Shown piece by piece: positions 417 through 4,261 of a stretch of 64,000 nucleotides of DNA (the first letter of the stretch is position 1; every line of letters begins with the position of its first letter). The notes beneath the pieces were generated by a model that ran no database searches, was not told the origin of the DNA, and was given only the letters and a program-made list of their open reading frames with translations. Origin of the DNA: Candidatus Latescibacterota bacterium (lineage in GTDB: Bacteria; Latescibacterota; UBA2968; UBA8231); the NCBI GenBank assembly GCA_965203355.1, contig OZ241889.1, positions 1,248,001 to 1,312,000 on the forward strand, given 5' to 3'. The position numbers and the translations under genes are program-made.

Positions 417-433
417 GACGTGCTCCTTGGCAT

Positions 434-470
434 AAAAAACCCCCGCTGTCATTGGAGCCGACAGCGGGGA
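434..470 (-). terminator. Intrinsic terminator (attenuator) upstream of thrS
   Basis: Perfect 10-bp stem CCCCGCUGUC/GACAGCGGGG (469-460 with 450-441), 9-nt loop, then G and U6 on the minus strand, ending about 18 nt before the thrS ATG. Confidence 0.9.
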
Positions 471-499
471 GCGGTTGCAAAATAAACTTTAGTCCGTCG

Positions 500-580
500 C
501 TATCCGGCGCACAGGATCGTCGTAGTGGTGGTGGTGGTAGCGGAAGCCGTCGGCCCCGATGCAGAAGCGACTGTAAGCAT
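500..580 (-). CDS. Thr-rich leader peptide MLTVASASGPTASATTTTTTTILCAG (26 aa)
   Basis: ATG at 580, TAG at 502-500; 9 Thr codons, 7 of them consecutive; directly upstream of the terminator and thrS. Confidence 0.88.
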   Translation of the reverse strand: MLTVASASGPTASATTTTTTTILCAG

Positions 581-586
581 GGCCAA

Positions 587-615
587 AAAATACCGGTAGC
601 GGTCTGATTGTGCAA
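587..615 (-). promoter_or_regulatory. Sigma70-like promoter for the thrS leader (predicts a leaderless start)
   Basis: TTGCAC (615-610), 17-nt spacer, TATTTT (592-587), then 6 nt to the A of the leader ATG; no SD. Confidence 0.6.
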
Positions 616-2133: not shown

Positions 2134-2326
2134 TCAGAATAGGTGCTGCTGAGGGTCAGCCGGGATTGGGAACACCCCGACAATGACCCATGGATTAGGG
2201 GCGACTTGGTGAAATCGCTGTGTCGTTCCGAGAAAAAAGTGAAGGTCGGTCTTCAGGAATGTGTCGAAGTACTTTCGGATAGGTCTTAACAGCGACGAGG
2301 ATGCGTTGTTTTTCCGTAATTGTCAT
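2134..2326 (-). pseudogene. Internally deleted remnant of a conserved hypothetical gene coupled to DUF488
   Basis: ATGA overlap with the DUF488 stop; N-terminus MTITEKQRILVAVKTYP joined out of frame to a C-terminus KYFDTFLKTDLHFFLGTTQRFHQVAPNPWVIVGVFPIP...stop. Confidence 0.65.
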
Positions 2327-3315
2327 AAATGTATCACGGTGTAACTCTGCTCTACAGTATGGTATCGTGCGGCTTGAGCAAACAGATCTTTCTGGTCAAG
2401 TATCCGGCAGAGCGCGTCGGCGACACCGTGCCGATGGCATTGGTCGGCCTCATGTTCGTAACAGGTGAGCGCGACAGATTCGCCCAATCTCAGCCAAGCG
2501 CAGATTTTTGCCAAAGCATCGCCCTGTTTCGGAAGGCTTTTGCGCTCGTATGTCCTGAAAAGAGCGTCGAAATCTGCTTGGGATTCTAAGCCCCGGCGTT
2601 GCCGTGATTCAATTCCGAGTTCGGGCAGGTGTTCGTAGCGAATGCCGACTCCATCGCCTGCCTTGGCAAGTGTTTTTTTAGAAAAGCCGTATTTGCGGCT
2701 GATGGCGTTCTGTCGAACATCGCAAAGGACGGTCACGCTTGCTTGGAGTAACGCATTGAGATAGCGCTCTAAAGTTCTTCCCTCGTACCCGATAGTCAAA
2801 AGCCGAGATGGGGTTCCTGCCGGGTGAGCGGACTTGATGCGATTGAGCGCGGCTTCATCGCTTTTGAGCACCTGCTTGGCAATGGTACTGTGGATCGCGT
2901 AATAAGGATGCTTGCGATAGGTTTCTGCGATGAGTGCCTCGCCTCGTAGCCTGTGGTAGCGCCGCGCAAATACGCGCATCGAATCGTCTTGGTTTTCGCG
3001 GGCGATGCGCTTGCCCTTCTCAGTGAGTATCCAATGCTGGTGATCGTCGATCAGCAGACCGCAATTGACGAGGCGGCGGCGGTCTGCATAGCACGTGAAC
3101 GAGCAAGCTCCATATTGGTAGGGCACGAATTCGTAGGGACTTGTTTGGTCGGAGGGGAACAACTCCTTGCAGTAGAGGAATAAGAGTTTCTGGAAGTCTC
3201 GGTTGCCCGTGTTGCCCCCAAGCACGTCAAGCAGTGCGAGGAGCAGCCGCTGGCGCGAGTACAGTCGGAATGTCCCTTTTTTATTAACTGCTTGAACTGG
3301 AGTTTTCATAGTCAA
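2323..3315 (-). CDS. DUF488 family protein with N-terminal winged-helix-like extension
   Basis: LLTIGYEGR, LCDVRQNAISRKYGFSK, YEHLPELG, CYEHEADQCHRH; N-terminal FQKLLFL...YEFVPYQYG. Confidence 0.85.
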   Translation of the reverse strand: MTMKTPVQAVNKKGTFRLYSRQRLLLALLDVLGGNTGNRDFQKLLFLYCKELFPSDQTSPYEFVPYQYGACSFTCYADRRRLVNCGLLIDDHQHWILTEKGKRIARENQDDSMRVFARRYHRLRGEALIAETYRKHPYYAIHSTIAKQVLKSDEAALNRIKSAHPAGTPSRLLTIGYEGRTLERYLNALLQASVTVLCDVRQNAISRKYGFSKKTLAKAGDGVGIRYEHLPELGIESRQRRGLESQADFDALFRTYERKSLPKQGDALAKICAWLRLGESVALTCYEHEADQCHRHGVADALCRILDQKDLFAQAARYHTVEQSYTVIHL

Positions 3316-3390: not shown

Positions 3391-4261
3391 CTACCGTTCC
3401 CACAATTCGCTCAGCGGCACGGCGAGTATGCGCTCACCGGCTAGCGGGAGCAGGTCGCGGCCGGTGTAGAGCAGTACCCCAAACTCGAAATGCTCACCGC
3501 AGCGATGGGCCAGCCGAACAAGCCCTTGCCCGTCTTTGGAAGTGAGGGCGCTGGTGGCCTTGACCTCAATGCCCCAAGTCTTCTGGCCCCGCGTAAGGAC
3601 TACATCGACCTCCACCTGATCCTTGTCGCGATAGTGCCAAAAACGCAGGTCCGGCTCTGTCCAGGTGGCTTGGGCTATGAGTTGCTGCACCACAAAGGAC
3701 TCCAATAGATGCCCCATGCGGTCCCGATGGTTGAGCCAATCGGCCGCAGTCAGGTCTGCGAGGGTCGCCGCTAGCCCGCTGTCGAGCAGATGGATCTTTG
3801 GCGTTTTGACGAGCCGTTTGGCCGGGTTGCGGTGCCATGCGGGCAGGCGTCGAACCAGAAAGAGCCGTTCAAGCACGGCGATATAGTGGTCCCGCCAGAG
3901 ATTCGGTAACGGTCGGCACCAGCAATAGATTGGCCGAGCCGGTCAGCAGAAAACGCCCGGGGCGGCGGTCTTGGTCTACGGCGCGTTTGATGGCCGAGAG
4001 CAGTGCTGGCACTCGTTGTACCTCGTCCAAGGTCACCGCCTCTGGCAGGTTGGCGACCAAACCGTCTGGGTCGGCCCCAGCGGTCTGATAGTAGTTGTGC
4101 TCGTCTAAGCTGATGAACGCCCGGTCCGGCGCGAGTTGCCGCACAAGCGTAGTTTTCCCACTCTGCCGTGGCCCAAGCAGACAGACCACTGAGGTATCTG
4201 CCAGAGCCTCTCGGAGAACGGGTGTCAGAGAGCGGGGAAACAGGGAATGGTCGGCGTCCAT
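3391..4261 (-). pseudogene. AAA ATPase + DUF4143 protein, split by an internal deletion/frameshift
   Basis: Walker A GPRQSGKTT, LDEVQR, LTGSA, ESLAG in one frame; HYIAVLERLF...KIHLLDSG...EVDVVL...IEVKA in another; junction near 3885; about 300 aa total versus about 400 typical. Confidence 0.85.

Follow-up and report, generated by a model that had tools for sequence, protein, structure and literature searches.

The 5' leader of thrS, the gene for threonyl-tRNA synthetase (ThrRS), in a Candidatus Latescibacterota bacterium is very probably a ribosome-mediated transcription attenuator which sets thrS expression by the supply of charged tRNA-Thr. The leader is situated at the beginning of a 64-kb stretch of contig OZ241889.1, in the following termed the window, whose coordinates refer to the minus strand unless marked otherwise. 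Attenuators of this kind are recognised by an upstream open reading frame (uORF) with clustered cognate codons and a preserved frame, by a terminator and by an alternative pairing, and all of these appear to be present in the leader:

580-500, minus strand: uORF of 26 codons plus TAG, read from the sequence, with ATG at 580-578 and TAG at 502-500, peptide MLTVASASGPTASATTTTTTTILCAG
538-518, minus strand: run of seven Thr codons (four ACC, one ACT and two ACG), codons 15-21 of the uORF
508-492, minus strand: 5' strand of the antiterminator ('region 2'), overlapping the TAG and invariant in all eight leaders of the window's subfamily save two single-base changes
470-434, minus strand: intrinsic terminator, made up of a stem (470-459 with 451-440), a loop of 7 nt and the run T6 (439-434)
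428-423, minus strand: Shine-Dalgarno sequence AAGGAG of thrS, invariant in the eight-leader subfamily
416-1, minus strand: 5' part of thrS (threonine--tRNA ligase), ATG at 416, extending past the edge of the window

The Thr run is the sole match to a pattern of six consecutive ACN codons in the 64 kb (two overlapping hits), and the pattern was found in none of 100 shuffles. Genome-wide, runs of seven ACN triplets gave 48 matches in genome G001 versus 11 in the reversed control, and two matches in G002; those of G001 are probably coding repeats. The terminator consists of 12 pairs, eight of them G-C, has a perfect Watson-Crick core of CCCCGCTGTC (469-460) with GACAGCGGGG (450-441), starts 30 bases past the uORF stop and reaches a hairpin energy of -22.4 kcal/mol. 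It is the sole terminator-like site in the scanned region, for which shuffles gave a mean of 0.5. Its 5' arm and loop can alternatively be engaged by the antiterminator strand, which starts 13 nt downstream of the final Thr codon: GCCGGAUAGCG (508-498) and CGCUGUCGGC (466-457) form a duplex of 10 bp and one bulge (-13.9 kcal/mol), and an unguided RNAduplex comparison of the terminator arm with the upstream 82 nt had its optimum at essentially the same site (-13.6 kcal/mol). The first 138 amino acids encoded by thrS matched TIGR00418 (NCBIfam) with an E-value of 8.8e-16, and this N-terminus is 88-93% identical to ThrRS of metagenome-assembled genomes (MAGs) titled Candidatus Latescibacterota. 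The uORF itself is the 3'-terminal part of a longer open frame at 874-500 (124 amino acids, GTG start), which overlaps an upstream sulfatase gene in a different frame and whose peptide gave no family in the comparison with Pfam.

An earlier note on this DNA had described a minus-strand frame with seven consecutive Thr codons, hidden inside a spurious longer frame and followed by a 10-bp terminator with a U-run just before the thrS Shine-Dalgarno sequence, together with an antiterminator spanning the leader stop, and had read the whole as a Thr leader peptide controlling thrS. The coordinates and content of the short frame were correct, the longer frame proved to be familyless, both pairings were found, and a thrS gene lies directly 3' of the terminator. 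The elements of that overall reading also hold across the relatives described below.

In the proposed mechanism, transcription would start at or next to the uORF AUG from a promoter at 615-587, giving a leader mRNA that is probably leaderless, and a ribosome would translate the 26-codon uORF as the RNA polymerase proceeds towards the terminator. When Thr-tRNA is plentiful, the ribosome would reach the TAG at 502-500 and cover 508-492; with this strand covered, the terminator (470-440 plus U6) would form, and most transcripts would end near 434, before thrS. When Thr-tRNA is scarce, the ribosome would stall at 538-518 with its leading edge short of 505, leaving 508-492 free to pair with 466-457, by which the terminator would be blocked and the polymerase could read into thrS. 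A ribosome covers about 12-15 nt on either side of its A site. With a footprint of this size, the antiterminator strand would lie just past the edge of the stalled ribosome and under the terminating one. Four parts of this scheme, namely the transcription start, the ribosome footprints, the kinetic competition of the pairings and the physiological response, are what we infer.

The window and seven MAGs with 88-93% identical ThrRS form a subfamily of eight leaders. The uORF is in frame in all eight, with lengths of 81-102 nt, and each indel within it, of 3, 6, 9 or 21 nt, is a multiple of three. Of the variable sites, 11 are at third codon positions, seven at first and three at second ones. The alignment of thrS upstream regions, proposed earlier as a check, revealed that a Thr run is kept in each of the eight close relatives; the runs comprise 4-10 codons (TPTTT, TTTMTTTT, TTATTTTT, T9, T10) and make use of all four Thr codons (ACG 23, ACT 23, ACC 22 and ACA 10 times in the eight leaders). 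The block from TGTGCGCC through the stop codon to the terminator hairpin is nearly invariant. At the level of sequence comparison, and thus indirectly, the uORF is shown to be under reading-frame selection, which suggests that it is translated.

The uORF is preceded by two candidate promoter hexamers and by the sulfatase gene, whose stop codon is separated from the uORF ATG by 41 bases:

615-610, minus strand: candidate -35 hexamer TTGCAC, kept in seven of eight subfamily members, with TTGACA at this place in L081
592-587, minus strand: candidate -10 hexamer TATTTT, 17 nt after the -35 hexamer and 6 nt before the uORF ATG
2112-622, minus strand: sulfatase gene (Pfam PF00884), stop codon TAA at 624-622

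The -10 hexamer reads TATTTT or TATCTT in all eight members, and the arrangement TTGCAC-N17-TAT(T/C)TT is preserved upstream of the subfamily uORFs although the sequence of the spacer varies. An ATG follows the -10 hexamer at a distance of 6-7 nt in every one of the eight leaders. Six members possess four additional N-terminal uORF codons (MISA, MISV or MIPA); the window and L002 are devoid of these 12-13 nt, so that their next ATG stands equally far from the -10 hexamer. In L082 the second ATG is absent and the promoter-proximal one is retained, so that the latter must be the start of this uORF. The gene upstream of L081 is another one, and this leader resembles the others from the -35 box (TTGACA) onward. 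No Shine-Dalgarno sequence was detected before the uORF ATGs of the subfamily, while thrS has AAGGAG. A consensus promoter scan of 300-800 made no sigma-70 call and the candidate hexamers match the consensus in three of six and four of six positions, so that it is their conservation which argues for a promoter. The hexamers at 615-587 presumably act as such, and the uORF is probably translated from a leaderless start. The latter had been proposed before and is made probable by the spacing between ATG and -10 hexamer, kept in eight of eight leaders despite the 12-nt indel, and by the arrangements in L082 and L081.

A sample of 120 genomes from the phylum of G001 provided the wider comparison; a ThrRS match was present in 116 of them. 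The N-terminus of ThrRS was 55-93% identical in 39 of the 120 genomes, with 44% as the next best value, and a terminator upstream of thrS was kept in 36 of these 39. In the 36, a hairpin CCCRCUGYCG...CGRCAGYGGG and a U-run stand just before the thrS Shine-Dalgarno sequence. Loci with thrS but no upstream terminator were L105, L113 and L117, and at L115 the U-run is interrupted. The leader peptides of different thrS subfamilies are unrelated in sequence yet Thr-clustered (..SAPSTTGSTTTKATTRAK, ..SAPTTATTPTTR.., MTSTPTTTPPATGT..), and further Thr-cluster peptides were found in other thrS subfamilies (..RRETTTPGTTTPVTGT.., MAFPTTTTTTRTT.., ..TATTWTTTTPPTGTPTGPT..). Outside the window's subfamily, a Shine-Dalgarno sequence of the GGAG type is usually located 8-12 nt ahead of the uORF ATG. 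At least five Thr codons within 10 codons of an open frame occurred in 22 of 40 leaders in the sense direction versus one of 40 in the reverse complement, and in 24 of 40 Thr ranked first or joint first among the amino acids; the row of L115 spans 649 nt rather than 165, and the counts are 21 of 39 and 23 of 39 when it is left out. At L122-L129, whose ThrRS is about 40% identical to that of the window, a promoter of the TTGACA type, about 110 nt of leader and a terminator rich in G+C precede thrS. These leaders contained neither a Thr-rich uORF nor an Rfam match, and theirs looks like a different leader type from that of the window.

The structural elements are shared beyond the window's subfamily. 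Compensatory changes were found in four of nine consensus pairs of the terminator among the 40 thrS leaders, and a 39-row alignment of leaders of all specificities had 97.2% of its terminator cells paired, with compensatory changes in six of 11 pairs, which was reached by none of 500 shuffles. About 45 nt upstream of the hairpin, in the last codons of the uORF, lies a conserved strand CGRYGGYGG that is a near copy of the 3' arm of the hairpin. This strand was paired with the 5' arm of the terminator at 90.1% in 29 thrS leaders and at 90.5% in the 39 leaders of all specificities; controls with a slid register gave 28-58%, and 77-81% at +3. In several leaders the same strand can also pair upstream with a segment which overlaps or abuts the regulatory codons, and this pairing amounts to the classical 1:2 / 2:3 / 3:4 layout of attenuators. 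The subfamily of the window has an interrupted ancestral strand, and its competitor has shifted to the stop codon and just past it. The hairpin loops vary freely among the 40 thrS leaders; the stem CCCRCUGYCG shows unusual conservation from one lineage to another.

A covariance model, R1, was derived from 29 thrS leaders, none of them from the window's subfamily, and its scaffold comprises the CGRYGGYGG strand, the stop codon, a spacer of 35-45 nt, the CCCRCUGYCG hairpin and the U-run. R1 matched the window at 435-534 on the minus strand with 28.1 bits and an E-value of 3.4e-5, and no other full-length hit with an E-value below 0.3 was obtained elsewhere in the 64 kb. Hits were present in 80 of the 120 sampled genomes. 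In two complete genomes the model yielded two to three real attenuators each, a number which does not fix the size of the regulon since R1 is biased towards thrS-like stems.

The scaffold recurs in front of other genes. Among 47 inspected R1 hits away from thrS, with gene identities assigned by NCBIfam for representatives, 28 combined an identified downstream gene with a uORF cluster of the cognate amino acid or acids (L145, L146-L150, L152-L156, L158, L160, L161, L163, L165, L167-L177 and L307), and a discordant codon cluster was found at none of these 28 loci:

metG, 6 loci: uORF ..PMCMMSS..
hisI or his operon, 10 loci: uORF ..HHTHH.. or ..HTAHHMHHHMM..
aspS, two types, 4 loci: uORF ..NDNDNN.. 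or ..NNNDDNN..
asd, 2 loci: uORF ..KSKPNTKRDDNKRTAK..
alaS, 1 locus: uORF ..AFAAASAAGAAYA..
glnS, 1 locus: uORF MPIRQQQRQQKR..
lysS, 1 locus: uORF ..LKRKNNSKR..
ilvB, 1 locus: uORF ..GVVHLVLGVNV.., two attenuators in tandem
valS, 1 locus: weak Val cluster, GTG start assumed
second, archaeal-type thrS, 1 locus: uORF with a cognate cluster

Another five hits had a codon cluster with a gene that was cut off or not identified (L144, L164, L166, L171, L175), three had a uORF without obvious cluster before ABC-transporter ATPase genes (L159, L304, L305; e.g. MKLSTCASRKKPKCPGG), and 11 were ordinary terminators. The genomes with the alaS, aspS and valS examples (G003, G004, G087, G089) belong to the same lineage as the window. 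A MAFFT alignment of 39 leaders revealed that strand, spacing and hairpin are common to all specificities; Rfam contained no family matched by the related thrS loci or by the loci of other genes. As the RNA parts stay constant and only the codons of the uORF change with the regulated gene, the codons must be the sensor. This codon swap is the strongest single argument for ribosome-mediated attenuation.

Some of these loci have features of their own. Tandem pairs of attenuators precede a single gene at L167 (ilvB) and L163 (lysS). At L166 an ISL3-family transposase gene comes after an attenuator whose uORF contains His, presumably by insertion between the leader and its gene. At L150, L154, L170, L173 and L307 the order is His leader, a small SAM-dependent methyltransferase and hisI, and at L148 HisI carries the N-terminal motif of this methyltransferase as a fusion.

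A wide scan of genome contigs with a loose pattern, which is uninformative on distribution, matched at least 118 stretches, of which 17 were inspected together with their R1 scores; eight of these 17, among the matches listed, were plain gene-end terminators. The matches listed also included Cys-cluster leaders (..MCCCRR..) before cysM/K at L209, L235 and L263, in records which their submitters had labelled Acidobacteriota bacterium, Bacterium HR08 and 'uncultured Clostridia' MAG (64% G+C), His-cluster leaders (HHTYWHHHH) before hisZ in Pyrinomonadaceae at L204, L210 and L247, and a Leu-cluster leader (NLNLLLSKALLL) before leuA in Limisphaerales at L256. With Acidobacteriota and Verrucomicrobiota among the record titles of this look-alike set, the scaffold may reach beyond one phylum.

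On balance, the thrS leader is probably one of a large family of sequence-related leader-peptide attenuators in which the uORF's codon cluster is the only part to be exchanged. The family apparently spans at least 11 gene types, mostly aminoacyl-tRNA synthetase genes, and would by analogy constitute a T-box-like regulon that is read by ribosomes rather than by tRNA. If its members are homologous and not convergent, specificity would have been re-programmed repeatedly by codon replacement.

Several observations weigh against an attenuator governed by Thr codons, and some of them would suit other explanations. No more than three Thr codons in any 10-codon stretch were found in 14 of the 40 thrS leaders. 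L088 and L089 have kept the scaffold and possess no Thr cluster, and the uORF of L091 has lost its Thr codons and reads ..AEPSAPIFSTSHVLW.., with antiterminator strand and terminator kept; the signal may have been lost or changed at these three loci. At L098 and L103 the hairpin and U-run directly follow a TTGACA-N17 promoter, with neither a uORF nor an antiterminator strand in between. L098 also displays a tandem duplication of the 3' arm of the terminator and the U-run. All these leaders keep the hairpin, which can thus persist without a Thr sensor. Such persistence, along with the unusual conservation of the stem across lineages, could be expected of sensing in trans, with ThrRS, uncharged tRNA-Thr or another hairpin-binding protein acting on the hairpin and the Thr codons being incidental. 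The same stem and strand, however, precede metG, his, aspS, alaS, glnS, lysS, valS, ilvB and asd genes, and as one scaffold serves other amino-acid genes, its conserved part holds no site specific for ThrRS or tRNA-Thr. The free variation of the loops, the lack of an Rfam family match (T-box included) and the reading-frame selection on the uORF likewise speak against a trans-acting sensor, which we regard as very improbable. The hairpin was also considered as a mimic of tRNA-Thr, a candidate that was rejected on account of the variable loops and of the hairpin's presence before other genes.

Folding of the single sequence also gave results unfavourable to the attenuator. The antiterminator duplex has a z-score of -1.9 versus shuffles of the upstream 82 nt and is by itself within chance; it is also far weaker than the terminator (-13.9 versus -22.4 kcal/mol). 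Duplex z-scores versus mononucleotide shuffles were mostly between 0 and -2. The fold of the whole leader is not better than its shuffles (z -0.37). The significance of the leader therefore derives from the Thr run, the terminator and conservation, not from single-sequence folding. An unremarkable whole-leader fold would also be expected if there were no regulation at all, the hairpin acting as a terminator or insulator that separates the sulfatase gene from thrS, and the Thr frame being due to chance or a slippage-prone repeat. Similar stems are indeed ordinary 3' terminators in many phyla, as in the 8 of 17 and 11 of 47 inspected hits given above. Set against this are the conserved promoter-like block between sulfatase stop and uORF, the leader of L081, which has another upstream gene yet is retained from the -35 box on, the Thr run that stays in frame through indels and synonymous change, and the Thr clusters that recur in unrelated peptides ahead of the same hairpin. 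Moreover, a terminator placed directly before the Shine-Dalgarno sequence of an essential gene, with no later promoter, needs a bypass. The probability of an unregulated thrS is next to negligible.

Two further segments of the uORF take part in the predicted folds:

571-566, minus strand: candidate 'region 1' GUCGCU, which pairs with AGCGAC (501-496) in the minimum free energy structure of the nascent leader and whose role is a proposed one
557-546, minus strand: segment 'b' GGGGCCGACGGC, codons 8-12 of the uORF, complementary over 12 bp to 465-454

The duplex of GUCGCU and AGCGAC comprises 6 bp with -7.9 kcal/mol. The segment at 557-546 pairs with the 5' arm and loop of the terminator at -23.4 kcal/mol, as strongly as the terminator itself, and dominates the nascent folds in most states (no ribosome, ribosome at Thr4-7 and ribosome at the stop). 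Constrained folding had been suggested as a check and was carried out at equilibrium, with a 30-nt mask for a ribosome placed on the cluster or on the stop codon. Its outcome was divided: in 11 of 19 family leaders a ribosome shifted from the cluster to the stop lowers the probability of arm sequestration by 0.10 or more, and in the window this probability was 0.82 for the stalled ribosome and 0.80 at the stop. The antiterminator of the window attained a probability of 0.66 only for stalls at Thr1-2. The masked folds of the window fail to discriminate because the segment at 557-546 takes the terminator arm in most states. In the full-length fold the terminator is dominant in all ribosome states (P 0.56-0.87), so that the switch must be a kinetic one. 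The decision of the trp attenuator is likewise kinetic.

The window differs from its relatives in this very region. A piece of 21 nt (seven codons, in frame, after codon 7) that is present in seven of seven relatives is missing from the window, where the deletion site lies between 559 and 562. The deleted piece holds CCGUCGG, the local pairing partner of the segment at 557-546, and the window copy may therefore be regulated differently or be leaky. With this loss, the strength of the 557-546 duplex and its dominance in the nascent folds, one might conceive of a real attenuator in which this segment is the working antiterminator, or which the 21-nt deletion has left largely constitutive; its dependence on Thr would then follow a different logic from the one in the earlier note. 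The pairing would nevertheless have to span about 80 nt across a translating ribosome, with little time before the 3' arm is made. Its full 12 bp are found in only five of eight subfamily members, without compensating changes in L004 and L084, and other subfamilies have no equivalent of the segment, the conserved competitor there being the strand near the stop codon. We therefore consider such a variant unlikely and favour the strand at 508-492 as the antiterminator.

For this strand, covariation is modest. In 29 thrS leaders the value was 0.242 versus 0.217 after shuffling and was reached by 26 of 500 shuffles, and in 39 leaders it was 0.252 versus 0.230 and was reached by 35 of 500. The changes pass through G-U intermediates (in one pair, GU 17, AU 10 and GC 9), and what speaks for the antiterminator is mostly conservation and the tolerance of G-U pairs. 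Of the covarying stems that the earlier note had asked for, the terminator thus covaries clearly and the antiterminator only modestly.

The last of the unfavourable observations concerns the leaderless start. Contigs from three metatranscriptomes were compared at 85% likeness; they stem from relatives of about 90% identity, give neither ends nor strand and may be DNA, and the three libraries matched 5-8% of the sampled words. A relative's contig, X9 record 14 (542-1244), joins the sulfatase gene and the uORF and would, if it is RNA, argue against an exclusively leaderless transcript. A further contig of a relative, X20 record 3 (252 nt), covers 272-520 and runs across the terminator into thrS. 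In library X23 no matching pieces were found at this likeness.

When 300-800 was scanned against Rfam with cmscan at E-values up to 10, the only hit was Atu_C7, an sRNA family of the Rhizobiales, at 19.1 bits versus a gathering score of 45; neither Thr_leader (RF00506) nor T-box was among the hits. This weak match, which lies mostly in the terminator, could point to a terminated leader RNA of about 147 nt, or the 26-residue peptide, that acts in trans besides or instead of in cis. A report on rnTrpL and peTrpL of Sinorhizobium provides a precedent (PMC6614838). Yet the Atu_C7 hit is far under threshold, conservation of the peptide sequence is confined to the subfamily, and the analysis yields no pointer to a target. 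An action in trans is accordingly held to be highly unlikely, and the leader is taken to act in cis as an attenuator.

Next to the locus, a frame of 330 amino acids with a C-terminal DUF488 domain (PF04343) is located at 2323-3315 on the minus strand, upstream of the sulfatase gene. CCCGCTGTCG recurs as an exact copy at 3775-3784 on the plus strand; two copies in the window are within chance (expected 1.27).

The mechanism is not new in kind, and the value of the finding is its breadth and testability rather than surprise. A phylum that is uncultivated and known almost only from metagenome bins displays a textbook-clear Thr attenuator on thrS. The exchange of sensing codons on one scaffold is a natural experiment on the evolution of attenuator specificity, and it supplies a simple annotation rule for dozens of short uORFs which gene callers overlook or fuse into spurious long reading frames. 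The leader is also a compact, portable part of about 150 nt, and replacing its codons might re-programme the amino acid to which it responds. In the literature searched, no account of a leader peptide, an attenuator or thrS in Latescibacterota and no description of a shared attenuator scaffold with multiple specificities was found, although thrS attenuators elsewhere may be listed in a survey (Lopatovskaya et al. 2010); the multi-specificity family is apparently undescribed.

The leader shares features with several known systems. Like the T-box of Firmicutes, it would respond to tRNA charging, the family targets aminoacyl-tRNA synthetase genes as well as amino-acid genes, a terminator competes with an antiterminator, and one scaffold carries an exchangeable specificity element. 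Unlike in the T-box, specificity resides in a codon cluster read by the ribosome and not in a specifier codon read by tRNA, and the leader has about 150 nt (147 nt from AUG to U-run) versus 200-300 nt. Neither a T-box sequence nor an Rfam T-box hit was found either in the leader of the window or among 40 related loci, and with a length of only about 147 nt the leader was not assigned to this class. In E. coli, thrS is subject to translational autorepression by ThrRS, which binds an operator that mimics the anticodon arm of tRNA-Thr and blocks ribosome binding. Control of thrS through a 5' leader is common to both cases. In the window's family, however, the loop is variable (40 leaders), a U-run follows the stem and the hairpin is shared with other amino-acid genes, so that an operator of the E. 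coli type was rejected as well.

Closer parallels are offered by thrL-thrABC, trpL and hisL of E. coli, the classical leader-peptide attenuators of amino-acid operons. These have in common with the window leader a short uORF with regulatory codons, a terminator before the first gene and a ribosome-dependent antiterminator, and in thrL, too, a Thr run is the sensor. The window leader differs from them in that it controls a synthetase gene instead of a biosynthetic operon, matches no Rfam leader family and has a uORF that is probably leaderless. In contrast to four-region leaders, the antiterminator strand of the window's subfamily is located on or just past the stop codon and not between regions 1 and 3.

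Leader-peptide attenuation of an aminoacyl-tRNA synthetase gene is represented in E. coli by pheM-pheST. The published accounts, in the portions available, add leader-peptide attenuators of trpS and leuS in Streptomyces (PMC1262725) and of hisS paralogues in bacilli (PMC2965389), as well as the leader peptides of thrL-thrS, leuL2-leuS, trpL2-trpS and alaL-alaS in S. lividans, with leaderless leader peptides before leuS, trpS and thrS in Streptomyces (PMC8079986). The premise of the earlier note, which tied Thr leaders classically to thr biosynthetic operons, thus stands for the classical cases and needs softening in view of the leader peptides reported for synthetase genes (PMC1262725; PMC8079986). 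The logic and the target class of these systems, the leaderless thrS leader peptide of S. lividans included, are the same as those of the leader described here. S. lividans thrL is described with two Thr codons only and no clear terminator (PMC8079986), compared with 7-10 consecutive Thr codons and a canonical terminator in the present case. Compared with the synthetase leaders covered by these portions of the literature, the thrS leader of the window comes from a different phylum, the Latescibacterota, and appears as a member of a sequence-related family of at least 11 gene types.

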